64,000 nt of DNA from a virus. Under the pieces are notes generated by a model, which was given only the letters and a program-made list of their open reading frames with translations, had not been told where the DNA came from and made no database searches. The stretch spans positions 29,508-93,507 of IMG/VR virus record IMGVR_UViG_3300046665_000589; one strand, given 5' to 3'. Of the stretch, positions 2,030 through 49,089 are shown in pieces. Each line of letters begins with the position of its first letter. Positions within the stretch are counted from its first letter, which is position 1. Both the position numbers and the translations under genes were made by a program.

Positions 2030-2049
2030 ATTATGGCACGGAAAATGCT
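2030..2049 (-). promoter_or_regulatory. Late promoter (extended -10 TGcCATAAT) overlapped by an opposite-strand sigma54-type box TGGCACG-GAAA-ATGCT
   Basis: Read directly; same core at 8138 and 49041. Confidence 0.55.
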
Positions 2050-2054
2050 TGCGC

Positions 2055-2083
2055 AAAAGAAAAGCCCGCTGGCGCGGGCTTTC
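2055..2083 (-). terminator. Intrinsic terminator
   Basis: AAAGCCCGC-tggc-GCGGGCTTT stem with a U-tract on the minus strand; near-identical to 8177-8203. Confidence 0.75.
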
Positions 2084-2117
2084 TCGGCTCAGGCGCCGCC
2101 AATGCCGTCGCGGGGCG

Positions 2118-2396
2118 TCATTTTGCGGCGGCAGGGGCCTTGGGCGCCTGCGGTGCGTCAGCTACCGGCTCTTCCTTGAAGCGGATCTCGCCATCGGTCG
2201 GGTCTTCGATCAGACGCAGCAGCGGCTGGGCCTTCAGGAAGTCCGAGCGGACAATGCGGGTCGGCACGCCCGGCTCGAGGATGACCAGGTCCGAGCCTGG
2301 GGTGTCGACCTGGCGCTGGTAATCCGGCAGGCGGACCTCGCCGGTATTGAGGACCCACTCGCCCTTCTTGTCGATGATCTTGAAGTGTTCGGACAT
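2118..2396 (-). CDS. Hypothetical virion-module protein
   Basis: AGGAG RBS, own putative promoter (TTGTCA-N16-CATACT) and downstream terminator. Confidence 0.7.
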   Translation of the reverse strand: MSEHFKIIDKKGEWVLNTGEVRLPDYQRQVDTPGSDLVILEPGVPTRIVRSDFLKAQPLLRLIEDPTDGEIRFKEEPVADAPQAPKAPAAAK

Positions 2397-2424
2397 TCTT
2401 GTTCTCCTGTGGATGAGTTCCCGA

Positions 2425-2474
2425 AGTATGCCATGAATGTTTCCTTTGACAAAGTTATTTTAAGGAGGTAGAGT
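2425..2474. promoter_or_regulatory. Divergent sigma70 promoters with overlapping -35 elements
   Basis: Plus: TTGACA(2446)-N17-TAGAGT(2469). Minus: TTGTCA(2452)-N16-CATACT(2430). Confidence 0.6.
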
Positions 2475-2507
2475 CGAGGCCGGTTAAGACTGAAGAGGAG
2501 AAGCGTC

Positions 2508-3362
2508 ATGTTGGGAGAATGGGTAGCGTTGGACGACTGGCAGCAGCTGCCAGACGTTTCCGGGATCTACGTGATCCGGCACCGGCAGAGCCAGAAGGCG
2601 TATGTGGGCCAGTCGAAAAATGTGCGTCAGCGCATCGCAAGTCACCGGTACGCGCGGTCCTGGCACTACTTCGGGCGCGCGCTGCGGCGCCACGGCCTCG
2701 CCGCGTTCGAGGTCTGCCTGCTGACCACAGGCGCACCGGAAGACCTGGGGCGCCTGGAGAAAGAAGCGATTGCCACGCTTGGCACGCTGGCGCCGGCCGG
2801 CTACAACCTGGCCGCTGGTGGCCTCGGGCCTACCGGCGTGACCTGGGCTTACGAACGCCGGCAGGCGCAGTCACTGGCGCGTACAGGCTTTCGGCACCGC
2901 CCTGACTCGATCGAGAAGATGCGCGAGGCGGCGCACAAAAACAATGGTTTCCGTGGGAAGAAGCACACGGCCGAGGCGAAAGCGAAAATCGGAGCAGCAA
3001 CCGTGCGTGTCCACACCGGGATGAAGCGGTCACCGGAGGTACGGGCAAACATCTCGGCGTCCTTGCAAGGTCGTGCGGCGCCTGTGCTGTCGCCGGAAGC
3101 CCGAGCGCGCATCGCAGAAGCCAACAGGAAGCCAAACCCGAAAAAGGCTCAGAGAGGTGAAAAGAACGGCATGCATGGGGTCAGGCTAGGTGAGCACCCG
3201 GCTGCAAAGCGGGTTGGCTTGTGGCTGCCCGAAGCCCTGACCCCGACCACCTTCGAAACAGCGACCGAAGCAGCTGCCTGGGCGGGCGTCAAAGTGTCTA
3301 CGCTATCCTGCTGGTGCTCCGGCAGACACAGGTCAACGCTGGGCGCCTGGGCCTACCTGTAA
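2508..3362 (+). CDS. Free-standing GIY-YIG homing endonuclease with NUMOD3-type repeats and a C-terminal NUMOD1/IENR1-like HTH
   Basis: SGIYVI...YVGQSKNVRQRIASH; LEKEAI; GYN; HRPDSIEKMR, HTAEAKAKI and RSPEVRANIS repeats; FETATEAAAWAGV. Confidence 0.9.
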   Translation: MLGEWVALDDWQQLPDVSGIYVIRHRQSQKAYVGQSKNVRQRIASHRYARSWHYFGRALRRHGLAAFEVCLLTTGAPEDLGRLEKEAIATLGTLAPAGYNLAAGGLGPTGVTWAYERRQAQSLARTGFRHRPDSIEKMREAAHKNNGFRGKKHTAEAKAKIGAATVRVHTGMKRSPEVRANISASLQGRAAPVLSPEARARIAEANRKPNPKKAQRGEKNGMHGVRLGEHPAAKRVGLWLPEALTPTTFETATEAAAWAGVKVSTLSCWCSGRHRSTLGAWAYL

Positions 3363-3365
3363 ATG

Positions 3366-3391
3366 AAAACGGCCCCTTTCGGGGCCGTTTT
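3366..3391. terminator. Bidirectional intrinsic terminator between the capsid and endonuclease genes
   Basis: AAAACGGCCCC-tttc-GGGGCCGTTTT. Confidence 0.9.
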
Positions 3392-3404
3392 AAGTTTGGT
3401 CAGA

Positions 3405-4637
3405 TCAGGAGATGACCAACACATCGAATGCCGTGAGGTCGGTATCACCGAATAACCTTAGGGCTTCCTCGCTCCAAGTCCAGATCATGCGACTCGAGCG
3501 GCGCAGCACGAACTCCTCGGTCGCCTTGTAATCGGCGCTGGTGTTGGTCACCAGCTTGATCGCCTGCGACTGGTCCAGGCCCCACACGGTGTTGGCCGGC
3601 ACCGGGCCACCGTTGGCGGCGTCGTCGACGATCAGCCACTTGACATCGTTGCCGAAGCCGATCGAGCCCTTGGCGGCGACCAGCTGCGGGTCGATGCGGG
3701 CCAGCGTCGGGTCGTAGTTGTTCGAACCCGGGCGGCCGGTGCGCGACTCGATCTTCAGGTAGGTGTCGAGGTCGCACATCACGTGGGTGATCTTGCGGCG
3801 GCGGCGGTTGCGCGCCAGCCACTTGACCCAGGCCTTGTGGGTGACCACGCCGCCGGTGGCAGCCGCGTCCAGCGAGTTGGTGGTCACCGCCGGCACCGCG
3901 CCGTTGTTCTGGTCCGTGTCGCCCAGGAACAGGTTGCTCAGGTAGGTGTTGACGCGCGCGTTGTGCTCGATGTCGATGTAACGCTTCATCGTCAGACCGA
4001 ACAGGTCGAGCGTGGTGCCCTTCATCGCTTCCTGGCTCATCTCGATGCCGATACCGTAGGCCGGGATGTTGAAGGCGCGCTCGGACGTGGTGATCGTCAG
4101 CATGTTCGGCAGCTCGCCCAGCTGGGTCACGCGGGCGGCCTTGGCGGCGTCGGCACCCTTGTTGGCGCCACCGGCCTTCTGGTAGCTCAGCACCGGCTGG
4201 CGGTAATAGTCGTCGGCCACCGGCACGGTGGTCTTGACCAGGTCACGGAAGCGCACGTCTTCGTCGCTGCGGCTGTCGTAGAACATGTCCTCGACCATCT
4301 CGATGACGACCGACGGGAACAGGATGCGCGACTGGTTGCCCAGCGGGTCACCACGCTCGCGGCTGTTCGAGGTGCCGCCAGCCTGGAAGCCGGCATTGCC
4401 TTCGAGGATGTCGTGGATCGACGCGGCGCGCAAGCCGAACGGGTTCTTGCCGACCAGCGACAGGCCCTCCGAGGCGGCGATCTGCTGGAACGCCGTACCC
4501 TTCTTCGGGTCGGCGTCCTTGTAGGTCATGTTGATCAGGTGCGCGACCTTGACGTTCTTGTCGACCGCTTCCTTGTAGAGAGTGTTTTCCAGCTTGACCT
4601 GCTGGACGTTCCCCTCGGCATTGATGTAAAAGCCCAT
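3405..4637 (-). CDS. Major capsid protein
   Basis: 410 aa after protease and decoration genes; strong RBS, biased codons, followed by a terminator; YGIGIEMSQEA segment is HK97-fold-like. Confidence 0.8.
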   Translation of the reverse strand: MGFYINAEGNVQQVKLENTLYKEAVDKNVKVAHLINMTYKDADPKKGTAFQQIAASEGLSLVGKNPFGLRAASIHDILEGNAGFQAGGTSNSRERGDPLGNQSRILFPSVVIEMVEDMFYDSRSDEDVRFRDLVKTTVPVADDYYRQPVLSYQKAGGANKGADAAKAARVTQLGELPNMLTITTSERAFNIPAYGIGIEMSQEAMKGTTLDLFGLTMKRYIDIEHNARVNTYLSNLFLGDTDQNNGAVPAVTTNSLDAAATGGVVTHKAWVKWLARNRRRRKITHVMCDLDTYLKIESRTGRPGSNNYDPTLARIDPQLVAAKGSIGFGNDVKWLIVDDAANGGPVPANTVWGLDQSQAIKLVTNTSADYKATEEFVLRRSSRMIWTWSEEALRLFGDTDLTAFDVLVIS

Positions 4638-4658
4638 TGTTGTTCTCCTGTTGAGGGG

Positions 4659-5147
4659 TTACTTGACGCGCTCGATGACGCCGGTGGTGCCCACGGCGCC
4701 GGTACCGACGGTGCCGAGCGACATGACGCGCCAGGCGAACGGGCTGGCCTTGGCGGCAGCCTGGTCGGTGGCCTTGCACACCTTCGCATACGTAGCCAGT
4801 TGGGTGCCCTTGGCGGTGATGGTGCCGGCCACCACGTAGTCGCCGACGGCGATCGTGCCGGTGCCCGGGGTCGCCTGCAGGCCGTCGAGCGTGACGAACA
4901 GCGCACGATCCTGCACGCGGCCGCCGACGGTGAAGCCGCCCGAGGTCGCGGTCTCGACGCCGTAGATCCAGCCTTCGATGGTGTCGCCAGCGACGCACAG
5001 GTCGTAGCGCGACTCGCCGGCCAACTTGATCAGCTTGCCTTCGTCCTTGACGGACAGATTGTTGGCCGCGCCGGCGCCGGCGCCGAGGCGGACCGGCACG
5101 ACGATCGGGGTTTCCCCGGTCGGCATGAAGTAGTGCAGTTTGGACAT
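4659..5147 (-). CDS. Putative capsid decoration protein
   Basis: 162 aa, Gly/Ala/Thr-rich beta protein between protease and MCP. Confidence 0.6.
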   Translation of the reverse strand: MSKLHYFMPTGETPIVVPVRLGAGAGAANNLSVKDEGKLIKLAGESRYDLCVAGDTIEGWIYGVETATSGGFTVGGRVQDRALFVTLDGLQATPGTGTIAVGDYVVAGTITAKGTQLATYAKVCKATDQAAAKASPFAWRVMSLGTVGTGAVGTTGVIERVK

Positions 5148-5160
5148 GCTGGCTCCTTGA

Positions 5161-6588
5161 TTAACGGTTGGCGGACGGCGCGGTTTTGAGGGCGAACTCG
5201 AAGCCGAACGGCACCGCGGCCTTGTTCGTGTCCTTGTCGTCGGCGTCGCTGGCGACCGACTGGCGGCCGACCGGGAACTTGGCCTTGAACTCGGTTTCGA
5301 CGCGGGCGTGCTCGGCGATCACGGCGGCGGCGTCCATGCCATCGACCGCGGCCTTGGTGCCGCCCAGCGGGATCAGCATCTTGGCGGTGGCGTCCTTGGC
5401 GATGGCCAGCAGGCCGTCGTGGTGCTGGGCCACCTTCTGCAGGTCGCCCACCTTGGCGGTGGCGGCGGCGGCATCGGCCTTGGCAGCGGTCAGCGCGGTG
5501 TTGGCGCTGGCCAGCTCGGCCTGGGCCGTGGTCAGCTGACCCTTGACGGTCGCCAGCTCGGCCTTGATGGTGGTCAGCTCGGCGGCTGCCTGGTTCTGGG
5601 AAGCGGCGGCGTCGCGCGCGGCGATCTCCTCGGCGCTCATCGCGGTGCCGTCTTCGTGCAGGCCGATGTCGGCCATCGACTTGCCGGCGCGCAGCAGGTT
5701 CAGTTGATCTTGAGTCAGAGTAATGGCCATAGCTTTACCTTTCGAATGGGAAGGAGTATTGCTGGAGTGTTTCTGCTTGTCAAGCAATTTTAGTGCCAGG
5801 TCGAAACTTTGCACTTTGTCCACAAGGCCGGCCTTGAGCGCCATCTGGCCGAGGAAGGTCTGGCCCTTGGTCACTTCGGCCAGCTGGTCGGCCGACAGGT
5901 TGGTACGGCCGGCCGCGACCTGCTTCTTGAACAGCTTGTGCACTTCGGCAAGCTGGGCCTGGGCGCGCTCCTTGGCGCCTTCGGTCAGCGGCTCGATGCT
6001 GTTGACCTCGGCCTTGTATTCGCCGGCGCGCAATACGGTGCGGGTCACGCCGTTCTGCTCGGCCTGCTTGCTGTTCTCGGCATGCACGCGCAGCACGCCG
6101 ATCGAGCCGACCACCGCGGTCGGGCCGGCGCTGATCGCGCCGCGAATGGCGCTGGCCATCCAGTAGCCGGCCGAGGCCATCAGCTCGGTGGTGTGCACGG
6201 CCGACGGCTTCAGGGCCGACAGCTGCGACAGCAGCGCGCTCATGTCGACCAGGCCGGCAACATCGCCGCCCGGCGTGTTGATGTGGTACAACATGGCTTT
6301 GGTGTCGGCGTGGGTCGCGGCCTCGATCGCGGCGGCCGCGATGTTGTCGTAGCCGAGCACGCCGAACAGGCGCATGAAGCCGGCATCACCCTGCACCACC
6401 GGACCGTTGATCTCGAGCACGGCGCTCGAGCCCTCGTGGCGCCAGAGCTTGGGCAGCTTGGCGATGGCCTCGTCCAGCCAGCCGGCGGTCATGCCGGGCT
6501 TGGCCAGCAGGTCGTCGACCTTGGCCTGGGCCTTGACGACCAGCTCGTACGACTCGTCCGAGCCGGCCCAGAAAAGTGGGACGCTCAT
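5161..6588 (-). CDS. S49-family head maturation protease fused to a C-terminal scaffold
   Basis: INTPGG, MASAGYW, VGSIGV and AGEYKA motifs; Ala-rich coiled-coil C-terminus. Confidence 0.85.
   Translation of the reverse strand: MSVPLFWAGSDESYELVVKAQAKVDDLLAKPGMTAGWLDEAIAKLPKLWRHEGSSAVLEINGPVVQGDAGFMRLFGVLGYDNIAAAAIEAATHADTKAMLYHINTPGGDVAGLVDMSALLSQLSALKPSAVHTTELMASAGYWMASAIRGAISAGPTAVVGSIGVLRVHAENSKQAEQNGVTRTVLRAGEYKAEVNSIEPLTEGAKERAQAQLAEVHKLFKKQVAAGRTNLSADQLAEVTKGQTFLGQMALKAGLVDKVQSFDLALKLLDKQKHSSNTPSHSKGKAMAITLTQDQLNLLRAGKSMADIGLHEDGTAMSAEEIAARDAAASQNQAAAELTTIKAELATVKGQLTTAQAELASANTALTAAKADAAAATAKVGDLQKVAQHHDGLLAIAKDATAKMLIPLGGTKAAVDGMDAAAVIAEHARVETEFKAKFPVGRQSVASDADDKDTNKAAVPFGFEFALKTAPSANR
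5755..5783 (-). promoter_or_regulatory. Internal sigma70 promoter for a nested scaffold (ATG 5730), decoration and capsid genes
   Basis: TTGACA-N17-AATACT in an AT-rich linker inside the protease gene; AAGG upstream of in-frame MAITLTQ. Confidence 0.55.
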
Positions 6589-8126
6589 TTTTTCGCGGGT
6601 CCTTTCGGTTGTTGCGGCGTCTTCTTCATCGCCGAGGTCGGCGAGGCCGGGTTGCCGGGGTTGTTGGGGTCCTGTTCGGCGGCCGGGGCCGGGGTCTTGA
6701 ACATGGTGCCGCTGAGCGGCTTGAAGGTCGGCGGCGGCAGCTGGTAGGTCAGGCGCAGGCAGGCCTCCTCGTCGCTCATCATGCCGATCGACAGCAGGTT
6801 GGTGATGCGCTCGTACTTCATGGCGCGGTAGGCCTCGAGCTCGCCTGCGGGCTTGAGCTCGATGTCGTCGAATTCGAACTCGACCGTCACGTCCATGCCC
6901 AGCAGGCGCACCGCCAGGGTCAAGGCCTTGCTGTAGAGTTCCTGCAGCTTCAGGCGGATCATGCCGTCGGCGTTCTTCAGGAACATCAGGGTCTCGGTCG
7001 AGGCCACGGTCTGCGACTTCGCGCCCATGCCCAGCACCGACGGCGGGGTCTTGGTGGCGGTGGCGATCTTGCCGTCGTAGATGCCCTTGACGGTCTCGAA
7101 GGTGTCCGGGGTGTCGCCGTTGTCGCCCTCGACGTACTTCAGGTGGAAGAAGTCGAAGTGCACCAGCGCCTCGTCCACGCCCAGGTTGCTGATGGTGTCG
7201 TTGATCTGCGTGAGCAGCGTGTTCAGGTAGGCGGTGATCTTCTCGTCGTCGCCGATGTACTCGGCCGGGATGCGCTTGAGCAGCTTCTCCTCGTCGATCT
7301 CAACGTCGTAGCGCTTGTAGACGTGGCGCTCGCAGAGCTTACGCAAGGTCGACAGGAAGTTGGTCGAGGCCAGCACCGGCTGGATCGCCGCCTCCATCGG
7401 GCTTTGCGGGTAGACGTCGTACAGGCTGGGGTCGAGCGCGACCCAGAAGAAGGTCGCGATGTCCAGGTCGATCTCGTCGCCACCCACCTTCTGCACCGGT
7501 TTGACGCCCTTGCCGTCCTGGTAAAAGATGATCGGGCCGGTTGGCACCGGCACCCACTGCAGCGGCAGGCGCTGCTTGTCGAGCACCAGTTCCAGGCCCA
7601 TCGCGCCCTGCTGCTGGATCTCCTTGGCCAAGGCCTCGGAGGTCGAGCGCAGGCTGCCGACCTGGGAAAAGCCGTTGATGTAGTCCGGCATCGTGTTCAT
7701 CGTGCGCAGCAGCTGCAGCGCCAGGCGGGTGGCGTCGACGTTGAAGTTGCCGTCCGGGTCGCGCGCGATCGCGATGTACTTTTCCGGGATGCCTACCCGG
7801 TTGTTGGCCGCGACCGAGCCGGCCAGCTCGGGCGAGATGCGCGACAGGTTGCGCACCAGGGTCGGGGTGTCCGCGGCGGTGCGGTAAGTCGCGGTCAGGT
7901 CGACGTTGGCAACGTCGAAGGCCGGCTTCTGGATCTTGGCGGTCGAGGCCACCGTGCTGGTGCGGAAACCCGGGAACGCGGCTCCGCCCGGCTTGGGCGG
8001 CTTGGGCGGCGGTGGGGACGGCAGCGCGGTTGCCGCGCTCATGCGCGAAGCGTCCGTGTTCACCGGGCTGTCAGCGTCGGTGAACCGGACCCCGCGGCGC
8101 GAGAAGATGGTCGGCAATTTCCACAT
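6585..8126 (-). CDS. Portal protein
   Basis: ~513 aa between terminase and protease; TPPSVLG motif; ATG 8126 (GTG 8132 alternative). Confidence 0.75.
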   Translation of the reverse strand: MWKLPTIFSRRGVRFTDADSPVNTDASRMSAATALPSPPPPKPPKPGGAAFPGFRTSTVASTAKIQKPAFDVANVDLTATYRTAADTPTLVRNLSRISPELAGSVAANNRVGIPEKYIAIARDPDGNFNVDATRLALQLLRTMNTMPDYINGFSQVGSLRSTSEALAKEIQQQGAMGLELVLDKQRLPLQWVPVPTGPIIFYQDGKGVKPVQKVGGDEIDLDIATFFWVALDPSLYDVYPQSPMEAAIQPVLASTNFLSTLRKLCERHVYKRYDVEIDEEKLLKRIPAEYIGDDEKITAYLNTLLTQINDTISNLGVDEALVHFDFFHLKYVEGDNGDTPDTFETVKGIYDGKIATATKTPPSVLGMGAKSQTVASTETLMFLKNADGMIRLKLQELYSKALTLAVRLLGMDVTVEFEFDDIELKPAGELEAYRAMKYERITNLLSIGMMSDEEACLRLTYQLPPPTFKPLSGTMFKTPAPAAEQDPNNPGNPASPTSAMKKTPQQPKGPAKK

Positions 8127-8133
8127 GGCCACG

Positions 8134-8162
8134 ATTTTGGCACGGAACTTGCTTTCTGTCAG
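8134..8162 (-). promoter_or_regulatory. Portal promoter CTGACA-N17-CAAAAT (leaderless geometry) overlapped by a perfect opposite-strand sigma54 box TGGCACG-GAAC-TTGCT
   Basis: 7 nt separate the -10 from ATG 8126; no RBS. Confidence 0.6.
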
Positions 8163-8176
8163 CTTTTTTGATGCGC

Positions 8177-8203
8177 AAAAGAAAAGGCCCGCTTGCGCGG
8201 GCC
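8177..8203 (-). terminator. Intrinsic terminator after terL
   Basis: GGCCCGC-ttgc-GCGGGCC plus a U-tract on the minus strand. Confidence 0.75.
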
Positions 8204-8261
8204 AAAAGCTTACGTGGAGACGGGCTTACTCTACCGCAAGCCGTGGCATTGTTCAATATCC

Positions 8262-10025
8262 TTAGGAGAGAACTCGGCCGATGCGCTGCTGCATGCGCGC
8301 GGCCAGCGCCTGGGTGGGGGACTGCTTATCGACGACTTTCAGCGCGACTGCCATCGGGAAGGTGCCAAAGCTCATGTTATGCGAGGCTACCGGCGCCAGC
8401 TCGCAGGCCACGTGCAGGTAGCCCAAGGCGTGCATGTAGTGGTCCTGGCCCTCGTTGGACTTGACCCAGGTCCAGACCAGGTCCATCAGCGAATTCATGA
8501 TCTGCTTGCGTTTCATGTCCAGGCAGTGCTCGACGAACAGGTCGTCCTCGGCGGTGCCGTCGGCCTGCCACAGGATCATGCCGGCCTTGATCTTGAACAT
8601 CACCTCGTCGAAGTTGACGTCGCGGTGGATCTTGGCCTGGTTGATCGGCAGCTTGCCCTCGGCCGGCTCGGCGCCGACCATCACCAGTTCGTAGGTGGCC
8701 AGCTTCTTGTTGCTGTGGTAGACGCCGCCGTACAGGTTCTTGTCGGTCTTTTGCAGCTGGTGCACCAGGTAGGTCTCGGGCTGGCTGTCGATGACCGTCA
8801 TTAAGACCCGAAACTGCTTCTTCAGCTCGTTCTTGCGGGTCGGCAGCTTGGCCAGCAGCACGCGCTCCTTGTGCACCACCAACAAGCGCCCAAGCTCGTC
8901 CTTGCGGCCGACCGCCACCGTGCACATCTGGCCGACGTCGATGCCCATGTTGTGCAGGCTGTTGGAGGCCAGCACGCCGTCGGTGAATTTGCAGGCGGTC
9001 AGGTCGCTGCGAGTGAGCTGGCTCTCGGACTCGTTGGCGGTCTCGCCCAGCGCCTGGTTGACGAACTCGGCCCAGGTCTTGTACTTGGTGATTTCCTGCA
9101 CCAGCGAGGGCACGGTGACCACGTTGGGCACGTCGAACGGGGTGACGTAGTAGCCGATCGCCTCGAAGTTGTCGTTCGGGTTCTCGCAGATCCAGGCGCG
9201 GTGCTCCGGCGCCAGGCTGGGCTCCTCGTCGCAGTGCGGGCAGTGCAGGCGCGCGTGCTGCCAGTCGATGGTCGGCAGGTTGTACTTGGTGATGTCGCGC
9301 AGGCGCCCGCTGTAGCCGGGGATCTTGACGTCGGTGTGAAAGCTCGGCACGAAGGTGTGGCTGCAATGGTGGCAGATCACCGCGCGGCGGTAACGCATCG
9401 CGCTCTTCATGTCCAGCGCGATGCCGTCGTCGTCGATGGTCGGGGTGCCGAACTTGCGGGTCAGCTTGTAGCGCGAGTGCTTGATGCGCGACTGGTACTG
9501 GCCCAAGGCGTCCGGATCTGAGCGGTCGACCTCGTCGTGGATCAGCATGTCGGCCGGCACCGAGATGGCCGAGGTCGTGCCCGAGCAGCCGCGGGTGTAC
9601 AAGAGGCTGGTGCCGATGCCCTTGATCTCGCTGTTGTCGAGGTCGCGGTCGACCACCTCGCGCAAGTCGGGCGACTCGTCGATAATCGGGGTCAGGCGGG
9701 TCTTGGAGAAGTTGGCCGAGTCGGCCGCGAACGGCATCGTCAGGATCACCGAGAAGTACGGCATCACGCGGCAGATCGCCAGCGCATAGCGCGCCATCGC
9801 CTCGGACATGCCGATCTGGGCGCACTTCTGGACGTACACCACGCGGCTGGTGTCGGACAGAATGTCCTTCTGGAATTCGTGGTCGACGAAGGAGAAGCGG
9901 TTGCCCTTGAGGTAGGTCTTGTCCTCGAGATAGCGCACGACGTCGCCCAGGTCGTAGCTGTTGAACAGCGCCGTTTCCAGGCGCGTCAGGTGGGCCCGGA
10001 TTTCGGGATCGTCGACCAGGTTCAT
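8262..10025 (-). CDS. terL: Terminase large subunit, lambda gpA type
   Basis: KCAQIGMSE Walker A variant, LIHDEVD Walker B, GTPT, CHHC/CPHC Zn motifs, GIDVG nuclease motif, DHYMHA. Confidence 0.9.
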   Translation of the reverse strand: MNLVDDPEIRAHLTRLETALFNSYDLGDVVRYLEDKTYLKGNRFSFVDHEFQKDILSDTSRVVYVQKCAQIGMSEAMARYALAICRVMPYFSVILTMPFAADSANFSKTRLTPIIDESPDLREVVDRDLDNSEIKGIGTSLLYTRGCSGTTSAISVPADMLIHDEVDRSDPDALGQYQSRIKHSRYKLTRKFGTPTIDDDGIALDMKSAMRYRRAVICHHCSHTFVPSFHTDVKIPGYSGRLRDITKYNLPTIDWQHARLHCPHCDEEPSLAPEHRAWICENPNDNFEAIGYYVTPFDVPNVVTVPSLVQEITKYKTWAEFVNQALGETANESESQLTRSDLTACKFTDGVLASNSLHNMGIDVGQMCTVAVGRKDELGRLLVVHKERVLLAKLPTRKNELKKQFRVLMTVIDSQPETYLVHQLQKTDKNLYGGVYHSNKKLATYELVMVGAEPAEGKLPINQAKIHRDVNFDEVMFKIKAGMILWQADGTAEDDLFVEHCLDMKRKQIMNSLMDLVWTWVKSNEGQDHYMHALGYLHVACELAPVASHNMSFGTFPMAVALKVVDKQSPTQALAARMQQRIGRVLS

Positions 10026-10195
10026 GGTTTGCGCGAGTTACGGAGCTCACACACGATGGCGCCGGTCAAATAGCTGACAGACAGACCAAGTAACCGATCG
10101 TTTTGTACGTCAAGGAGCATTAGTAGTATGAGCAGGGCAACCAGTGGCGTCAGGATCAGTGCCAGTTCGCGGATAGTGTCGAGGATGATGTTCAT
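10022..10195 (-). CDS. 57-aa predicted membrane protein (below ORF-track cutoff)
   Basis: MNIILDTIRELALILTPLVALLILLMLLDVQNDRLLGLSVSYLTGAIVCELRNSRKP; ATGA overlaps on both sides. Confidence 0.6.
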   Translation of the reverse strand: MNIILDTIRELALILTPLVALLILLMLLDVQNDRLLGLSVSYLTGAIVCELRNSRKP

Positions 10196-10620
10196 TTCGG
10201 CGTGCCGTCCGCGTTCAGGTAGTCGCTGTAGAGGTCGAAGAACCGGCGCTGCTGCGGCTCGGGCAGATCCTGGAGGGTCTTCATGAAGGCGGCCTCGTAG
10301 CGCTTGAGGCGCTCGGCGTCATACACCACGCCCATTAGCTTGGTCAGCTCCTTGAGCATGGCGCCGACCGAGTTGAACACCTGGGCGCGCTGGTTGGCCG
10401 GCACGTCGTCGTCGTCCTGGATCTTGGCCAGCAGGGCCTTGCCGGCGCGGTACTGCGCGCCCAGCTCGTCGCCCATGTTCAGGCTGCGCGGGTCCAGCTG
10501 CAGCTTCTTGTCGATCTCGTTGCGCAGGCGCAGCAGGTCGTCGTCGCTCAGGTCCTTGAGCAGGTCAACCGCGGGCGCCTTGTCGGGCTTGGGGGCCAGG
10601 CTGTGGTTTTTCAGGGTCAT
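10192..10620 (-). CDS. Putative terminase small subunit
   Basis: 142 aa helical protein upstream of terL. Confidence 0.55.
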   Translation of the reverse strand: MTLKNHSLAPKPDKAPAVDLLKDLSDDDLLRLRNEIDKKLQLDPRSLNMGDELGAQYRAGKALLAKIQDDDDVPANQRAQVFNSVGAMLKELTKLMGVVYDAERLKRYEAAFMKTLQDLPEPQQRRFFDLYSDYLNADGTPK

Positions 10621-10955
10621 GGCTTGGCGTTCCGGTAGCGGTAGATGGTGCGTTCGCTGCAGTGGGCCTGGCGCGCGGCCTCGGTCACGCTCAGGCGAGT
10701 GTCGTCGGTGGCGCGGGTGCGTGCGGCTACTTCGCGGCGCAGCGCTTCACGCGCCTCGAGCAGTTCCATTTCTTCTGGCCGTGACCGTTTGCCCTCGCGG
10801 GACGGCGGCGGCTGGCGCTGCACGTCCATTTTCTTGAGCAGGCGGCAGATGTGGCCCTCGGATACGCCCAGTTTGCGTGCGACGTCGCGGTTGGTCAGCT
10901 CGCGGCGGACGATGGCGGGGATGAGCGGCTTGAGCCGGTCGCGTAGGGTTTCCAT
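10617..10955 (-). CDS. Tandem helix-turn-helix DNA-binding protein
   Basis: LTNRDVARKLGVSEGHICRLL and LSVTEAARQAHCSERTIYRYR; ATG 10955 lies 6 nt after TTGGCA-N17-CATACT (leaderless). Confidence 0.75.
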   Translation of the reverse strand: METLRDRLKPLIPAIVRRELTNRDVARKLGVSEGHICRLLKKMDVQRQPPPSREGKRSRPEEMELLEAREALRREVAARTRATDDTRLSVTEAARQAHCSERTIYRYRNAKP

Positions 10956-10980
10956 GCAATAAGTATGCCAGCTTTGTCGG

Positions 10981-11095
10981 GATTTGCCAATTTTGTGCAA
11001 AAGTTGCGCAAAATTTTCAAAAATTTTTGAAAATCGGGTGGTTTTGGCTGTTTTGTTGCAGAAAAGCAACAAAAAGTTTGAAAAATTGCTGGAAA
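10981..11095. repeat. A/T-tract region with a perfect 22-bp palindrome (11013-11034); probable packaging/terminus zone
   Basis: ATTTTCAAAAA|TTTTTGAAAAT plus two more inverted repeats; lies at the late/early divergence next to terS. Confidence 0.6.
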
Positions 11096-11335
11096 TGGCG
11101 GAGGGACCTGGTAGGCCAGGCGCCGGCAACAGGCCAAAAGCTCCTATACGTCACCCAAGGCACGATCGGCACCGCCCGCGTGCGTTCCGTCGTCCGGGTT
11201 CGCGCGCCCCGCCACGGGCCTAAAAACGGCCTTGCTGGGCGTGGCACACTTCTTGCTTTAACCGGCCGGGCCATAGGCTAGGCCTATCAACTTGACAGTG
11301 GCCATAGCCTGGCACAGTTCATGCTTAAGCGCCGC

Positions 11336-11410
11336 TGACCAGTACAGTTACCAGTACAGTTACCAATACAGCGCCGGTACAGTGGACCAGTACAGCGGCA
11401 CTGTACGGGT
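11336..11410 (+). repeat. Tandem CCAGTACAG-like repeats (about 5 direct, 1 inverted)
   Basis: accagtacagtt accagtacagtt accaatacag cgccggtacag tggaccagtacag cggca ctgtac. Confidence 0.75.
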
Positions 11411-11634
11411 GCGCCAGCCGACCTCGCCAGCCGACCCGTGCGGCCGCACGATAGGGAAAAGCTATCACCCCGATTAATAAAATAAATTGGTAAAAGTAAG
11501 TTATTCCCGGCATACTAAGGGCTCAGTAGCGGTGCGGCTGGTCCGGCGCACCGTGGGCGCTAGCTTTTGCCCCTGTAGTTTCCCATAACCGTTGTCCGGC
11601 GCACTGTGCGCCATCTATCCAAGGAGCCCTTACC

Positions 11635-12330
11635 ATGAAACTCACCCACATCTCCGCTGTCCTGTTGTCGCAATTCGTCGCTGCCGATGCCGGTTCAGTC
11701 GAAGCGCAACACGATGCCCGCTTGTGCGCCGTCTATACCGCCTACCGCACCGCCCTCAAGGACGGCAACAAAACCCAGCTGATGCTTGTGCAGGCCGCGT
11801 GCGACAAGTACGCCACGCCCAAGGCTTGCTTGGAACTGGTTGGCGCGGCCAAGGTCAACGCCGCTGCGCGCCGCGCCCATGCCACTTATGCAGCCTACAG
11901 GCTGGCGCTGGCGCAGGTTGGCATTCCGTCGCTGATGAAGGGCGCGGACATTGACGCGGTCGAAGCGCAGGCGGCGGCGCTGGCCGGGGAATTCGTCGAA
12001 GTCATCACGGTAGCGCTGACGCCCGAAACCAAGCCGGAAGCATCGGCAGAAGAAAAGGCAGCGGCCAAGGCCGCCAAGGAAGCGGAAAAGGCCAAGGCCG
12101 CGAAGGAAGCGGAGAAAGCGCACCGTGCGGAGGTGCAGGCAGCGGCGCAGAAGATCGCCGAAACCAACGCGCTGACCTTGGACGACATGGCGCGCGCCGT
12201 CATCAACGCCATGCGCGCCGGTGCGCTGTCGGCGGAACTGTTGCAGGAGCTCGACAGCGCGCTGGACGCAGTGGCCGCTACGGTCGTGCCGGTTGTCGTC
12301 AAAGTCGAGCCGGAACACGCCCCGACCTGA
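11635..12330 (+). CDS. First early gene, Ala/Lys/Glu-rich hypothetical protein
   Basis: AAGGAG RBS; AT-rich promoter-like region ending CATACT at ~11511. Confidence 0.75.
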   Translation: MKLTHISAVLLSQFVAADAGSVEAQHDARLCAVYTAYRTALKDGNKTQLMLVQAACDKYATPKACLELVGAAKVNAAARRAHATYAAYRLALAQVGIPSLMKGADIDAVEAQAAALAGEFVEVITVALTPETKPEASAEEKAAAKAAKEAEKAKAAKEAEKAHRAEVQAAAQKIAETNALTLDDMARAVINAMRAGALSAELLQELDSALDAVAATVVPVVVKVEPEHAPT

Positions 12331-12336
12331 TCCGCT

Positions 12337-30619: not shown

Positions 30620-31780
30620 ATGAAAACCCGCACCCACTCCTACACTACCTACGTTATTCCCGGCACCGAGATCGAGGTTGAGCTGCCGGTCCAGCCCTCA
30701 CCGATCATGGACTACCACGAGACGTTGGTCAAAATCACCGACGACACGATCGTGCTCGGCTACCTGGCGCACGACGGCGACTGCGCCAACCCGCTGGACG
30801 ACGACGGTGAGGGCCACATCTACGAGGCACGGCGCCATGGCAACACGCTGGGCAAATACTGCGATGCGCTCGGCCTGCGCCACGACGGCGGCGGGCCGGA
30901 CCTGGGCCTGGTCGACGAGGAGGCGGCGGTCGAAGAAGCCGTGCGCCGGATCCTTGCCGATCCAGGGGAGACGGCCAAGGCGCTGGAGCACTGCCGTAAC
31001 TACTGGGAGCAGCCGGACGGCCGCGGTGACGACCGCTTCATCGAAGACTGCCTCGATTCCCTCAACGAGCTGAATCCGGTTTTCGACGTCGACGCCCTGC
31101 TGCGTGAGATGTGGCAGGAAGGCCGCAAGAACGGCACGATCGGCAATCGCTATGCCATCATGCTCGACGTCTACGAGCACAGCGGCATCACCTTCAGACT
31201 GTCCGGCCAGGGCATGCAGTGTCAGTTCGACACGGCGCGCGGCGGCGCGGTGTGGGTGCCGGACAAGTACGCCGAGGATGAGATCAAGCGCCGTGGCGAG
31301 GTGTACCGGAAGGGCGATATCTTCCATGAGGGCCGTGCCGACTTCAACGTGCGTACCCTCAGTCCTGACACGCTCGTCTACGACGACGTCGTGCATCCGA
31401 CGTTCGGGCACTGGCACCAGGCCTGCGCATACCTCGAGGGCCTGGCGGCGACAAACCTGCGGGACCTTGCCACCGCCGAGCACATCGCCGCCCGCGAGCT
31501 GGCCAAGGATGCCGCCGAGCAGTACACCGACTGGTGCAACGGCAACTGCTTCGGCGTGGTCGTGGTCACCTACGACAAAGAAGGCAACGAGATCGAACAC
31601 GACAGCTGCTGGGGCTTCGTCGGCGACGACTATGCCTACGAGTCGCTGAAGAACGACTACTTTCCGAAGGAAGACCCAGAGTGCGCGAAAGGCCTGCACT
31701 CCTGGATCGGCGAGACCGGCAAGCTGCCGCCCGACACGCGCTGCACCCGCTGCGGCGAGCCCTACGGCAATCCTGATTGA
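30620..31780 (+). CDS. Acidic hypothetical protein
   Basis: 386 aa, AAGGA RBS; LDVYEHSG and DSCWGFVG motifs; C-terminal Cys/His cluster. Confidence 0.7.
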   Translation: MKTRTHSYTTYVIPGTEIEVELPVQPSPIMDYHETLVKITDDTIVLGYLAHDGDCANPLDDDGEGHIYEARRHGNTLGKYCDALGLRHDGGGPDLGLVDEEAAVEEAVRRILADPGETAKALEHCRNYWEQPDGRGDDRFIEDCLDSLNELNPVFDVDALLREMWQEGRKNGTIGNRYAIMLDVYEHSGITFRLSGQGMQCQFDTARGGAVWVPDKYAEDEIKRRGEVYRKGDIFHEGRADFNVRTLSPDTLVYDDVVHPTFGHWHQACAYLEGLAATNLRDLATAEHIAARELAKDAAEQYTDWCNGNCFGVVVVTYDKEGNEIEHDSCWGFVGDDYAYESLKNDYFPKEDPECAKGLHSWIGETGKLPPDTRCTRCGEPYGNPD

Positions 31781-40368: not shown

Positions 40369-40422
40369 CAAACTCTTGCGCTTTTGGCGTATAGTAGTTG
40401 CCTACCGCCAAGGAGAAATTTT

Positions 40423-45317: not shown

Positions 45318-45464
45318 TGCCGACCCGCGGTGAAGCCGGCCGCGGCGTGCCGGCAGCATCCGCCACTTGGGGCGCAGGTGCCGCCGGCGCCTGCGCCCCA
45401 CTGTCAGCCAGCTGTTTTTGGCGCGCTGGGAGCACGATCACGCGCCCCGGGATAGGCGAGGCGC

Positions 45465-46049
45465 TCATTGCTGCACCCGGCGCAAGACGATCGTGCGGTC
45501 CAGGATCCGCGACGGTACGCTGGCGGTGGTGGCGCGGAAGGTGATCTCCATCTCCGGGTCGGTACCGCCACCGACGAACACCGTGGTCAGCATGCCGTCG
45601 GCATAGTGCCCGGCGTCGGTCAGGCCACCACTCACCAGGTAGTCGCAGCGGTCGATGGTGTCCGTAATATCCGCCATCACATCGGTCCAGTCGAGCGTGA
45701 CGTCGATCACCGAGTCCGGATCCTTGATTCCGATCGGGCGGGTCGGGTCGGTCAGATCCCAGCCGGGACCGCCCTCGAAGCGGTCAGGGCCGACCAGCAC
45801 CTTGAGGGTGCGGGACTTGGAAGGTACGAAGCTCATAGGTCCTCTCGGAGCAAGTGCGATGGCGGCCGTCCGGCCGGTGGCGGCTGCGGTGCCGGGGCTG
45901 CAGCCAATCGTAAGCGTGTCACTCAGTAGCAAGGTGGCGCGCGCGCCGGCCGCGCCGGCCGTACCGACCGCACAGCTGACGGTCAGGGTGGTGCTCGAGT
46001 CGGTCGACGCACCCAGTGCGTCGTCGCCGATGGGGGCGTCGCCGATCAT
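45465..46049 (-). CDS. Virion accessory/fibre-associated protein
   Basis: KDPDSVIDVTLDW adaptor-like motif; last gene of the inverted cassette. Confidence 0.55.
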   Translation of the reverse strand: MIGDAPIGDDALGASTDSSTTLTVSCAVGTAGAAGARATLLLSDTLTIGCSPGTAAATGRTAAIALAPRGPMSFVPSKSRTLKVLVGPDRFEGGPGWDLTDPTRPIGIKDPDSVIDVTLDWTDVMADITDTIDRCDYLVSGGLTDAGHYADGMLTTVFVGGGTDPEMEITFRATTASVPSRILDRTIVLRRVQQ

Positions 46050-46052
46050 CGC

Positions 46053-48518
46053 TTAGGACAACCCAACGTGGCCGGCAGGCGGCGTGTAGGCGAATGCGGA
46101 TGCACCGAAGTTGGCCGTCCACTTGAAATTGTTGCCATTCACGCTGCACATCGGGAAATAGGTTCCCGACAGGCCTGTGTACGCCACGCCCTGCGATACG
46201 CCGTTCTTGGAGAACGTAACCGTACCGGCGTCCATGTCGAGTGCCACACCGATCACATCGCCCGCGACAAAGGCTGCGCCGTACGGGGCACTCGAGCCCG
46301 ACGTAAATTTCATGCCACTGTAGTAGTAGCCGTTGCCGTTGGCGTCGCCGCCTGGGAAGCTTGCGAGGTTCGCAGCCGCTTTGCCGATACCTGCCATGCA
46401 GGTGTCGCCGGCATTGAGCGTGACCTCCCAGTACCACTTCCCGGCCGACTTTCCGATCGTGGCGCGCGCCGACTGGTGCCCACTGATTCCGGCCGCCCCC
46501 GCCATCGACAGGTTCGCCGCCGACAGGGTAATGTTGGCTCCCTTGTCTGCAGGGTTCCAAGTGGCGAAGACTTGCGCCACTACGGGGGTGACACTGTTCG
46601 ATGCGGCCGACTCGGGGCCGGTGCCGGCGCTGTTGGTCGCCTTGACTTTGGCGTAGACCGCAGTCCCGTTGACCGCAGCGACGGGGATCGGGCTCGACGC
46701 ACCCGAGGCACTGCCGGCCGCCGTGTTGTCCGATACCTTGTACAGCGTTGCGGTGTAGCTGCTGATCGCCGCGCCACCAGTGTTGGCCGGCGCGGTGAAC
46801 GCCACCGACACCGTGCCGTCGCCCGGGGTCGCCGCGCCAATGGTCGGCGCATCCGGTGCGGTCACGACCGGGGCGGCCGTAGTGACGCTGGCGGCGAGCG
46901 CGGTCGAGCGATTCCCGGCGGCGTCGTAGGCGCGTACGCGGAGTTGATACGTAGTCCCGGCCGTGGCCCCGGTTATTGCGCGGCTGGTCACGTTACCCGC
47001 ATCGCTGTACGTGGTGCCGCCGTCGGTGCTCGTTTCGTAGCCGGTGACGGCGACGTTATCCGATGCTGCAGGCCAGTTCATCGTGTAGCCGGTCTGCGTA
47101 ACGCTGCTTGTGGTGAGGCTGCCCGCCATCGTCGGCGCGACCGTGTCAGCCGATGCGGAAGTGGTGACTGCCAGCGAGAGCGGCGTCGAGCGGTTTCCGG
47201 CGGGGTCGTAGGCGCGCACACGGACGTTGTAGACCGTGCCTGCGGTGAGGCCCGCAAACGCCTTGCTCAGCACGCTTCCGGCGTTCGTATAGGTCGCGCC
47301 GCCGTCGATGCTCGTTTCGTAGCCGGTCACGCTGGTGTCGTCGCTTGCCGCCGCCCATGTGACGGTAAAGCCGGTTTGCGTGACGCTCGACGAGGTGAGT
47401 GCGCCGCTCATGGTCGGCGCGGTCGTGTCGGCTGCCGGTGCGGGGGCTGCGGCAGCGGCACCCACCTTCGCGACCGCCAGCCCGGCACGCGTCCCGAGGA
47501 TGCGCACCCCCGGAGCGGTGTAGTGGACGTCGTTGGCAAAGCCAGTCGGGCCGGCCACGAAGACGCAGCGGTCCACCTCGGCGGCGACCTGTTTGTGCGC
47601 GGCGTCGATGGCTGCGTAGTTTGCGTTGGCGGCGATCTTTTCAGGGACCATGCCGTTGATGATGAACCACGAATTCGCGGCGCCAGTGATGCGCGAGCGA
47701 AAACCTGCGATAAGCGCCTTGAGCGCCGTGACGTAGGTGGCCTGCGGGATGTTGTAATTGGCGTCCTGTTCGCCTTGTCCCCATATCACACCGACGACTC
47801 GGGAGTTCGGGTACAGCGCGATTGCGGCGGCATACGCCAGGTTGGTTTGCGTGACCGCCAGTTCGCACAGGTAGCCGCCTGGTGCCCACGGCGGGTTGTT
47901 GGCGACCAGTCCGGTGCTGCCCTCTGCTACCGGCACCAGCAACACGCGGCGGTTACTCGGGATCGAGTTGGCGTAGGCCTTGCCGAACCAAGTGCTCGGA
48001 CCGATCAAGCCGGTACGTGGGCCGTTGTACATCAGCATCGGGTCGGAGCCCGCCACGATCTTGCGGTACGTGTTGGCGTCGGAGTTGGAACCGCCGAACT
48101 GCATCAGGCGCGGGTCGTACACGTCGATGTACTGGTCCCACGGAGGATTGCCCTCCATGTTCGATTGGCCCGCGCACAGTACGATGTCGTAACCCACGTC
48201 GTCGGGGTTGACCAGGCCGCGGCGCAGCGAGCGCCCGCTGGCCACCTCGAACACCATCTTGGTGCCCGCCGCAAGCGTCACATCGCCGTCGTTATTCGAG
48301 CTCGACAGGATTTGGGTGCGGGTCAGCGTGGTGGTAGCAGTCAGCGTGTAGACGCCTTCCAGCCAATTGCCGGCGCCGTCGACGATCACCAGCTCGATGC
48401 CGGTCTCGCCCACCGTATGCCGCTTGGAGAACGGCAGGTAGCCTGACATGGCGCCGCCCAAGCTGATCGTCGCCGACGAGGTGGAGGTGGAGGTCTCTTT
48501 GATGCGTGAATAGGCCAT
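46053..48518 (-). CDS. Putative receptor-binding protein: SGNH acetylesterase (SASA/DUF303-like) + 3 FN3 + SPRY
   Basis: AGQSNM, WGQGEQD and DVHY catalytic motifs; VRAYD.AGNRS FN3 repeats; GKWYWEV...GDVIGVALDMDAGTVTFSKNG SPRY. Confidence 0.8.
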   Translation of the reverse strand: MAYSRIKETSTSTSSATISLGGAMSGYLPFSKRHTVGETGIELVIVDGAGNWLEGVYTLTATTTLTRTQILSSSNNDGDVTLAAGTKMVFEVASGRSLRRGLVNPDDVGYDIVLCAGQSNMEGNPPWDQYIDVYDPRLMQFGGSNSDANTYRKIVAGSDPMLMYNGPRTGLIGPSTWFGKAYANSIPSNRRVLLVPVAEGSTGLVANNPPWAPGGYLCELAVTQTNLAYAAAIALYPNSRVVGVIWGQGEQDANYNIPQATYVTALKALIAGFRSRITGAANSWFIINGMVPEKIAANANYAAIDAAHKQVAAEVDRCVFVAGPTGFANDVHYTAPGVRILGTRAGLAVAKVGAAAAAPAPAADTTAPTMSGALTSSSVTQTGFTVTWAAASDDTSVTGYETSIDGGATYTNAGSVLSKAFAGLTAGTVYNVRVRAYDPAGNRSTPLSLAVTTSASADTVAPTMAGSLTTSSVTQTGYTMNWPAASDNVAVTGYETSTDGGTTYSDAGNVTSRAITGATAGTTYQLRVRAYDAAGNRSTALAASVTTAAPVVTAPDAPTIGAATPGDGTVSVAFTAPANTGGAAISSYTATLYKVSDNTAAGSASGASSPIPVAAVNGTAVYAKVKATNSAGTGPESAASNSVTPVVAQVFATWNPADKGANITLSAANLSMAGAAGISGHQSARATIGKSAGKWYWEVTLNAGDTCMAGIGKAAANLASFPGGDANGNGYYYSGMKFTSGSSAPYGAAFVAGDVIGVALDMDAGTVTFSKNGVSQGVAYTGLSGTYFPMCSVNGNNFKWTANFGASAFAYTPPAGHVGLS

Positions 48519-48533
48519 GCGGGCGCTCCCGGG

Positions 48534-49007
48534 TTACGACGCGGTCAGGGTCAGGATGTCGTTGGTGGCGCCGTTCCAGTCGATTTGTACCTGGCCAGCC
48601 ACCAGCGAGGCGGTTCCCGCCGAGGACAGCTCGACATAGCCAAGGCAACGCTTGTTGGCGTCGGTGTTGTCGAAGATCCAGCCGTAGGCGCCGTTGGTAA
48701 AGCCCGAGGCGTCCTGCGCCAGGGTGAGGATGTCGGCGCGCAGCTTCGGCCCAGTGCGACCCACGTCGGCGAAGGTGACGTTGGTCAGCGTGATAGGCCC
48801 GGTGTAGCTGGTACCTGTGGTCGCCACCTGGTTGGCGGCGGCGTTGGTGGTGCCGGTGCCGCCCCAGTGCGGGACCGCGGTGCCGATGGTCGGCACGACG
48901 GCGTTGGTCGTGATGCCCAGCTTGAGCACGTCCGCGCTCAGGTCGAACTGCTTCTTACCGAGCGCGACTAGCGCATCGGCGAACCATTTGACGTCACCCG
49001 TTGCCAT
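48534..49007 (-). CDS. Virion structural protein (first gene of the inverted cassette)
   Basis: Thr/Gly/Ala-rich beta protein; late-type promoter upstream. Confidence 0.6.
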   Translation of the reverse strand: MATGDVKWFADALVALGKKQFDLSADVLKLGITTNAVVPTIGTAVPHWGGTGTTNAAANQVATTGTSYTGPITLTNVTFADVGRTGPKLRADILTLAQDASGFTNGAYGWIFDNTDANKRCLGYVELSSAGTASLVAGQVQIDWNGATNDILTLTAS

Positions 49008-49036
49008 TATTTAATCTCTCAAGTTGATTTTTCGCA

Positions 49037-49089
49037 AGTCTGGCACGGTTCTTGCCTCATGTAAAGTGCCGCATGGCACGATTATTGCC
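49037..49089. promoter_or_regulatory. Minus-strand late promoter TTTACA-N17-CAGACT plus two plus-strand sigma54-type boxes (49041-49056, 49074-49089)
   Basis: TGGCACG-GTTC-TTGCC and TGGCACG-ATTA-TTGCC. Confidence 0.6.

Follow-up and report, generated by a model that had tools for sequence, protein, structure and literature searches.

Sigma-54-type -24/-12 boxes interlocked with sigma-70-type promoters across a family of uncultured phages: putative docking sites for the host sigma-54 holoenzyme

The window analysed here is a 64,000-nt stretch (positions 29,508 to 93,507) of the 93.5-kb genome of an uncultured phage, IMG/VR record IMGVR_UViG_3300046665_000589. It includes a neck operon (gene 1515-2009, -), a protease-scaffold gene (5161-6588) with a nested scaffold start, the portal gene, an operon in which the gene for a 112-aa tandem helix-turn-helix (HTH) protein (10617..10955, -) precedes those for a 142-aa protein and the large terminase, an early plus-strand operon whose first gene lies at 11635, and a divergent region between a fibre cassette (48534-49007, -) and an RdgC operon (49188, +). 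The initial annotation listed seven sigma-54-type boxes, at 2034, 8138, 11242, 11310, 49041 and 49074 on the plus strand and at 10970 on the minus strand. All seven are real and lie at these positions and strands, but the list overlooked an eighth window box at 5783-5798(-). Five more are located outside the window, including those at genome 13063(-), 16632(+) and 29284(-) and an AGGCAT variant at 27101(-), which brings the genome to about 13 boxes in both orientations.

Several boxes point away from the genes whose promoters they overlap. The box at 2034..2049 (+) is directed away from the neck operon and has an orthologue in seven relatives; read on the minus strand, its TGGCA belongs to the neck-operon extended -10 (TGc + CATAAT, 2030-2038, -), and a terminator is found just upstream at about 2063-2085 (-). 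The box at 8138..8153 (+) is directed away from the portal gene, whose promoter (TGc + CAAAAT, 8134-8142, -) has a CTGACA -35 element 17 nt upstream. In the divergent region, the box at 49041..49056 (+) gives, on the minus strand, the fibre-cassette promoter (49037-49045, -; TGc + CAGACT, with TGc + CAGAAT in orthologues). As had been claimed, these three boxes sit on the extended -10 elements of the operons for neck, portal and fibre and face the other way. In a second box of the same region, at 49074..49089 (+), the spacer includes AATAAT, which is the -10 of another minus-strand promoter (49108-49081, -; TTGTAA, 16 nt, AATAAT).

The remaining boxes of the window run in the direction of the adjacent genes. 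Upstream of the early operon, the forward box at 11242..11257 (+) doubles as a TGg + CACACT extended -10, and its orthologues in relatives all have T at box position 9; a second forward box at 11310..11325 (+) doubles as TGg + CACAGT with TTGACA 15 nt upstream and is followed by CCAGTACAGT repeats. A weak early-promoter candidate, TTGGTA/CATACT, lies near 11484-11513. The box at 5783..5798 (-) has the same orientation as the genes and is positioned inside the protease-scaffold gene at a domain junction, where it is kept in relatives L003-L006 and L008. Its final base is the first T of the TTGACA -35 (5783-5778) of the nested-scaffold promoter, which continues through a 17-nt spacer to AATACT (5760-5755) and the scaffold ATG at 5730 (all -). 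The box at 10955..10970 (-), also in gene orientation, spans -10 to +1 of the sigma-70-type promoter of the HTH gene (10962..10990, -; TTGGCA, 17-nt spacer, TG-extended CATACT; 9/12 matches, TG present). Its final base is the A of the start codon at 10955, which is also the predicted +1, and the proposal that this box covers the ATG of a leaderless gene is borne out. The features expected of leaderless extended -10 promoters (TG at -15/-14, A at -11, T at -7 and ATG at the predicted +1) are present in both the HTH and portal genes. Since the conserved portal ATG at 8126 coincides with the predicted transcript start, the portal mRNA is predicted to be leaderless, a geometry found in the window and in relatives.

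The strict pattern TGGCAY-N5-WTGC occurs nine times in the window against 0.80 +/- 0.96 expected (100 dinucleotide shuffles; largest 4), so that a lack of enrichment, which would have spoken against the motif, is not what we find. The whole 93.5-kb genome has 12 copies, 9 of them fully intergenic although the non-coding share by our own gene calls is only 13.7% (binomial tail 2.5e-6). A match at 31143..31157 (-), inside and antisense to the early gene 30620-31780, is probably a chance occurrence outside the box system, since about 0.8 such matches are expected per window. TGGCA is followed by TTGC at a gap of 6 in ten cases, compared with zero to two at each other gap from 0 to 20, and the GG and GC doublets within TGGCAC-N5-TTGC are exactly 10 bp apart with a spike only at the canonical gap, confirming the GG-N10-GC spacing as a single fixed gap across boxes.

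Boxes are kept at equivalent places in 13 complete or partial IMG/VR relatives, at protein identities as low as 37-45%. The eight complete relatives contain 43 boxes versus 5 for a reversed control pattern, and within each orthologous class box conservation is 0.88-0.98 versus 0.49-0.75 for the flanks. The -12 TTGC is among the retained positions, and the motif is thus not dismissed for want of conservation; enrichment, strict spacing and conservation together support its reading as the sigma-54 -24/-12 consensus. A logo of 44 phage sites gives TGGCA-Y-R, an A/T-rich spacer and TTGC-T/A/C. Both its core and its degenerate positions equal those of the 135-site E. coli sigma-54 ChIP-seq set described in PMC4591121; the degenerate preferences agree with bound E. 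coli sites in having Y then R after TGGCA and W or C after TTGC. In relative L035, the lysis box agrees at 17/17 positions with the hypA site, the top-scoring among the E. coli table rows consulted in that source. A dimeric palindromic operator was considered and rejected, because the box has symmetry over only 3-4 bp and its invariant positions T1, G2, Y6 and T12 lack symmetric counterparts.

Most boxes overlap a sigma-70 core element, either an extended -10 (on either strand) or a -35, with varying position and orientation. Inverted boxes cover the extended -10 at four operons (neck, portal, fibre cassette and tail fibre), and forward boxes abut the -35 at three promoters (nested scaffold, lysis and tape measure). 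Forward boxes precede the early operon as well as genes for lysis, tape measure and tail tube, and one stands at the nested scaffold start. Overall, 4 of the 13 boxes face away from the adjacent operon, one lies on a start codon and the others are compatible with driving genes. In L009, L010, L013 and L014 the portal box has moved off the -10 and its TTGCCA now forms the -35; in L054 the HTH box is inverted and the -10 is still covered; and the GCAA half is invariant even though it falls in sigma-70 spacer or discriminator sequence, on which sigma-70 makes no demands. On these grounds, the box appears to behave as an independent operator superposed on sigma-70 elements.

The phage appears to lack transcription machinery of its own. 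Searches of the phage gave no PF00158 activator ATPase over the cut-off, no PF04552, PF04542 or PF00940 match, no sigma-54 or sigma-70-type factor, and no T7-type polymerase; the PF00940 negative is weak, since its control matched no control genome. No shared upstream activator site was found in the box flanks of the 44-site logo. When 24 kb of window sequence were compared with INPHARED by megablast, no close cultured relative emerged, the nearest cultured phages having only ~30% identity in TerL or portal, and a portal search of bacterial genome contigs for the host gave no match. The host is Gram-negative, judging from a proline-rich lipoprotein o-spanin and the Proteobacteria hosts of distant cultured relatives, and the same Gram-negative lysis genes and proteobacterial hosts make it likely that the host encodes rpoN.

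Based on this anatomy, we propose, with a probability of roughly 45%, that the boxes are putative docking sites at which the host sigma-54 holoenzyme competes with sigma-70. A phage family without its own polymerase, sigma factor or activator would thereby interlock RpoN sites with sigma-70-type core elements. Because sigma-54 holoenzyme remains in a closed complex, stable but silent, unless it is acted on by an ATPase activator, its occupancy should exclude sigma-70 holoenzyme and keep the promoters down. Relief could come about in two ways: replicated phage DNA may exceed a small sigma-54 pool, or a host activator may fire so that the complexes are cleared. Binding by sigma-54, repression and the mode of relief are all inferred. 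More doubtful is the extension that sigma-54 holoenzyme serves as a ready-made repressor titratable by DNA copy number, for whose boxes the tandem-HTH protein may compete; virion, lysis and regulator genes would then be shut until sigma-54 is outnumbered or the complexes are cleared. The suggestion that host sigma-54 represses or times late genes fits the anatomy; the boxes also extend beyond late promoters. The early-operon and tail-tube forward boxes may in addition be true enhancer-dependent or dual sigma-70/sigma-54 promoters. Occlusion at single copy would also affect the early forward boxes, whose promoters must fire first, so that other early promoters or dual use would be needed. Two further points count against competition by sigma-54: some phage promoters are boxless, such as 2425-2452(-) and 57241-57269(+), and intragenic bound sigma-54 sites in E. 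coli are described in PMC4591121 as having no roadblock effect.

Alternatively, a phage protein could be the real reader of the boxes, since boxes and the tandem-HTH gene always co-occur in this family and neither occurs in the nearest cultured phages. The 112-aa protein, as a monomer whose two HTH units are separated by roughly one helical turn, would bind the asymmetric bipartite site, repressing its own leaderless promoter and modulating the other boxed promoters, with repression where the box lies on the -10 and possible activation where it lies at -38 to -53; the sigma-54 likeness would be either selected, through competition with sigma-54, or coincidental. We consider this main rival less likely than docking by sigma-54. 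Several observations favour it. The gene heads the terminase operon, the usual place of late regulators, and its product matches PHROG 836 'late transcriptional activator' (2e-9, residues 61-111 only) as well as the Pfam families HTH_23, HTH_29, HTH_17 and HTH_28. An AlphaFold model (pLDDT 87) has two three-helix units joined via a long helix. The box-ATG junction is kept in all family members, down to 37% identity in L067, and the two distant cultured relatives SHOU24 and TCUP2199 have neither boxes nor the gene. We examined distant homologue contexts at five loci (L065-L069), and single-protein scans and tblastn for further ones gave no matches; the synteny of HTH, small protein, TerL and portal is retained even in the most distant, L068 and L069, where the first HTH is different, the boxes are absent and another small dyad lies over the start codon. 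However, independent convergence on the sigma-54 consensus, with about 11 specified positions, spacing and degeneracy, would be very unlikely unless sigma-54 is involved. Moreover, the co-occurrence reflects a single clade and lacks independent events, the box positions (-12..-27, -15..+1, -31..-46 and -38..-53) fit no one activator geometry, and the recognition helices are invariant and hence uninformative for covariation. The protein is the candidate phage regulator and may bind the box as a bipartite HTH. The more specific idea that it mimics sigma-54 is unsupported and was rejected: ten orthologues gave no Sigma54_DBD Pfam match at E<=10, a six-frame search for this domain found no match, no sigma-54 chain appeared among PDB sequence-profile or Foldseek matches, and the SERTIYRYR helix compared with the RpoN box contains SERTIYRY, a generic HTH_23/HTH_28 recognition helix.

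It is less probable still that every box serves as a functional enhancer-dependent sigma-54 promoter under the control of a host activator, with forward boxes driving early, scaffold, lysis, tape-measure and tail-tube units and backward ones producing short or antisense RNAs that regulate neighbouring late operons. Their consensus quality equals or exceeds that of proven E. coli promoters, 8-9 of the 13 face downstream genes with space for a 5' UTR, and rpoN-dependent promoters are known from the virion and lysis region of phage YuA. Against this stand the lack of both a phage activator and a shared upstream activator site in the flanks, and a good sigma-70 promoter already attached to nearly every forward box. 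Transcription from the HTH box would also begin inside its own gene, that from the 2034 box would meet a hairpin after about 25 nt, and that from the 8138 box would run into the terminase gene at its 3' end. We consider it very improbable that sigma-70 elements (TGnCAnnnT extended -10, TTGNCA -35) produce the motif as a by-product and that no separate factor reads it. Such an origin would account for the 8-9 sites at which TGGCA or TGCCA doubles as a TG-extended -10 and for the four relatives in which TTGCCA is a -35, but leaves unexplained an invariant TTGC half at a fixed distance where sigma-70 needs nothing, the boxes fully upstream of the -35 (5798, genome 13063 and genome 27101) and the absence of the pattern from distant relatives.

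Sigma-54 is usually discussed as a positive, activator-gated route. Phage use of it rests on one cultured case, the Pseudomonas phage YuA, which depends on host sigma-54 (Ceyssens et al. 2008, as cited in PMC10914365 and PMC5053324). YuA is likewise a virulent siphophage of a high-GC Gram-negative host, with host sigma-54 -24/-12 sites in its virion/lysis region according to these sources, and encodes no activator of its own. However, its genome (NC_010116) has three annotated sites, all in gene direction, and TGGCA-N7-TGC has no match in it, the annotated -24/-12 regions included. We therefore rejected YuA as a sequence model and take it as a precedent in principle only; the phages are unrelated, and here about 13 near-consensus boxes, facing either way, are joined to core elements of sigma-70 promoters. 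A parallel is found in E. coli, where sigma-54 binds in a transcriptionally inactive form and acts as a repressor at sites that overlap other promoters (Bonocora et al. 2015, PMC4591121), and where 8 of 50 intergenic sites face away from genes according to the same article. Motif, silent bound holoenzyme, overlap repression and some outward-facing intergenic sites are thus shared, as far as that article describes them. Unlike the scattered single cases in E. coli, the overlaps here recur systematically from operon to operon within one phage family and are conserved through sequence turnover. Reichenbach et al. in 2009 are said to have described overlapping sigma-54 and sigma-70 promoters at glmY. 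Throughout this lineage, ordinary promoters are combined with sigma-54 sites of top quality, of which one in three faces backwards. This points to sigma-factor competition as a possible viral control layer, which, if true, would couple late expression to genome replication or host signalling state without a phage-encoded activator.

The tandem-HTH protein resembles Mu Mor/C and the PHROG 836 late regulators in being small, having a C-terminal HTH and being encoded at the head of packaging and virion genes. It differs in having two HTH units, and Mor (1rr7) ranks only 29th by Foldseek (E 1.7), with no significant PDB match overall; the late promoters here also share no dyad site upstream of the -35. 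As in the Tc3 transposase DNA-binding domain (1u78) and AraC-type Rns, two HTH units per chain would read an asymmetric two-part site of fixed spacing, but these fold matches are weak and non-significant (E about 0.8-0.9, TM about 0.3), and the HTH gene here has no transposase context. The protein belongs to a widespread, uncharacterised family of 100-aa tandem-HTH proteins (284 clusters at 50% identity) that head terminase operons.

All seven sigma-54-type (RpoN) -24/-12 boxes reported in the initial annotation were recovered, six on the plus strand (2034, 8138, 11242, 11310, 49041 and 49074) and one on the minus strand (10970), and the motif is enriched: TGGCAY-N5-WTGC occurs nine times in the window versus 0.80 ± 0.96 times in shuffled sequence. 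The whole genome contains 12 copies, nine of them wholly intergenic at a non-coding share of 13.7% by our gene calls (binomial tail 2.5e-6), and TGGCA is followed by TTGC ten times at the canonical gap and zero to two times at each other gap. One further real box at 5783-5798 (-) had been overlooked, the copy at 31143-31157 (-) is probably a chance match, and a variant box, AGGCAT, is present at genome 27101 (-) (positions marked "genome" refer to the whole virus record).

Conservation in related phages was likewise borne out. A portal search of IMG/VR yielded 13 loci with 93-44% identity, to which a search with the 112-aa tandem helix-turn-helix (HTH) protein added further relatives, and boxes recur in these at the same places: at the starts of the HTH gene and the nested scaffold, upstream of the portal and neck genes, in the divergent region between fibre and RdgC, and within the lysis cassette and early region. 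Eight complete relatives carry 43 boxes versus five matches to a reversed control pattern, while Vibrio phage SHOU24 has no copy and Acinetobacter phage TCUP2199 has one, which is the control level. Conservation per orthologous class was 0.88-0.98 in the boxes versus 0.49-0.75 in their flanks, a comparison that is partly circular in that the search pattern fixed 11 of 16 positions.

The record (93.5 kb, 65% G+C; the window spans bases 29508-93507) is a circular assembly, since its two ends overlap by 157 bp. Codon-bias gene calls with PHROG and Pfam scans place a minus-strand virion module at 1-10955, comprising the HTH protein (10617-10955), a 142-aa protein, the large terminase (8262-10025), portal (6585-8132 as called), protease-scaffold (5161-6588) and major head protein (3405-4637), with neck and tail genes extending beyond the window. 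Small early genes then fill a long stretch of the plus strand (11635-45317), followed by a minus-strand fibre cassette (45465-49007) and, from 49188 onward, a plus-strand replication/recombination operon that continues round the record's origin and encodes RdgC, a C5-methylase, an SNF2 helicase, a primase and polymerase parts. Antisense to the late operon, between the major head gene and a 92-aa gene, lies the gene for a GIY-YIG-type homing endonuclease of 284 aa in which NUMOD3-like motifs are repeated (2508-3362 (+)); its GC3 of 0.74 is below that of neighbouring genes.

The boxes adopt three recurrent geometries relative to sigma-70-type promoters. Inverted boxes, at the minus-strand late promoters of the neck (2034), portal (8138), fibre cassette (49041) and tail fibre (genome 16632), contribute their TGGCA, read on the gene strand, as a TG-extended -10 (TGc + CAnnnT); an intrinsic terminator directly precedes those of neck and portal. 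The portal most likely starts at ATG 8126 (-), a codon that relatives share and that lies at the predicted +1, rather than at the upstream GTG at 8132. Outside the window, the open reading frame of a tail gene (genome 15253-16593 (-)) extends as far as an ATG at about 16593, with the inverted box of genome 16632 some 40 nt upstream. In the second geometry, forward boxes at the HTH gene and in the early region (11242, 11310) themselves form the extended -10 (TGg + CAYnnT), with TTGC occupying -4 to -1; the HTH promoter reads TTGGCA, a 17-nt spacer and CATACT, with the ATG predicted exactly at +1. An A/T-rich tract with nested palindromes (10983-11096), including a perfect 14-nt palindrome pair at 11013-11034, separates this promoter from the early boxes. 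Just downstream of the second early box, CCAGTACAGT is directly repeated four or five times (11338-11397 (+), spacings 12-13 and 23 nt); at this place relatives have other repeats (GGTCCAACCA), and such repeats may be sites for another regulator.

In the third geometry, a forward box adjoins a -35; this class comprises the box at 5798, by the nested scaffold start (TTGACA-17-AATACT), and those of the lysis (genome 13063) and tape-measure (genome 27101) genes. No clear sigma-70 partner accompanies the box that precedes the tail-tube gene (genome 29284). Protease and scaffold are encoded in a single frame, within which the scaffold has its own nested ATG at 5730, similar to lambda C/Nu3, and the putative promoter and ribosome-binding site of this start both lie within coding sequence.

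A logo of 44 phage sites agrees with the E. coli sigma-54 ChIP-seq motif in both its core and its degenerate positions, and the lysis box of one relative (L035) is a 17-mer identical to hypA, the top-scoring of the E. coli sites compared from the table in PMC4591121. A dimeric operator was considered and is disfavoured because the site is asymmetric. Domain searches of the phage genome detected neither a sigma-54 domain nor an AAA+ activator, nor a sigma-70 region 2 or a T7-type polymerase, the control for the last being uninformative. Given the consensus match and this gene content, any host with rpoN would be expected to load sigma-54 holoenzyme on the boxes. Retention of the exact consensus across phages with <50% protein identity would imply selection for binding of this holoenzyme.

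Based on these data, we tentatively propose (probability about 0.45) that sigma-54 and sigma-70 holoenzymes compete at the promoters of the virion, lysis and HTH genes, which is the simplest way to read boxes that float in position and orientation yet keep overlapping a -10 or -35. In four relatives (L009, L010, L013 and L014) the portal box is displaced, its TTGCCA serving as the -35 of a leaderless portal promoter, and L054 carries its HTH box in reverse orientation with the -10 still covered; these two cases show the box to be an element in its own right. That it is a by-product of sigma-70 elements is very improbable, since its GCAA/TTGC half is invariant although it always falls where sigma-70 has no sequence requirement. 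According to PMC4591121, DNA-bound sigma-54 holoenzyme is silent and acts as a repressor where its site overlaps another promoter, and some intergenic sites face away from genes. Silently bound host holoenzyme would similarly compete with sigma-70 holoenzyme at the boxed promoters, and this brake could be released through titration by replicated DNA, by a host activator or through displacement by the HTH protein. A weak point of such competition is that the boxes in the early region would be occupied as well. It seems improbable that every box is instead a working sigma-54 promoter, the backward ones yielding short or antisense RNAs.

The only phage-encoded candidate reader of the boxes is the HTH protein, which has two HTH units, matches PHROG 836 and carries a box over its own start, although we consider this role doubtful. 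Its family comprises 284 clusters at 50% identity; a public protein collection lists the protein at 150 aa (P0002), while the conserved start gives 112 aa. The suggestion that it mimics sigma-54 found no backing in Pfam, PDB profile or Foldseek comparisons, and its last helix, previously likened to the RpoN box, is of the generic HTH_23/28 recognition type. L068 and L069, which encode distant homologues whose first HTH differs, keep the synteny of HTH, small protein and TerL (in L069 also the portal) and have no boxes; instead, a small dyad, ATGAC-N3-GTCAT, covers the HTH gene's own start codon (L068:406-418, L069:3214-3226), at one copy per contig. As this pattern reflects one clade, it weakly supports a link between protein and box.

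Dependence of a phage on host sigma-54 is already known, with a published precedent in YuA (PMC10914365, PMC5053324). The YuA record (NC_010116) has three annotated -24/-12 promoters, all sense, and a pattern search of its genome found no consensus box, whereas the phage described here carries consensus boxes in both orientations; what is new is their systematic interlocking with sigma-70 elements, again in both orientations. The nearest cultured phages, which infect Vibrio, Acinetobacter, Pseudomonas and Achromobacter, share only ~30% terminase or portal identity. The lysis cassette, which lies outside the window, encodes a proline-rich, lipobox-bearing lipoprotein of 66 aa (genome 10992-11192 (-)) downstream of the endolysin (genome 11789-12442); this lipoprotein is likely an o-spanin and, being typical of these proteins, indicates a Gram-negative host.
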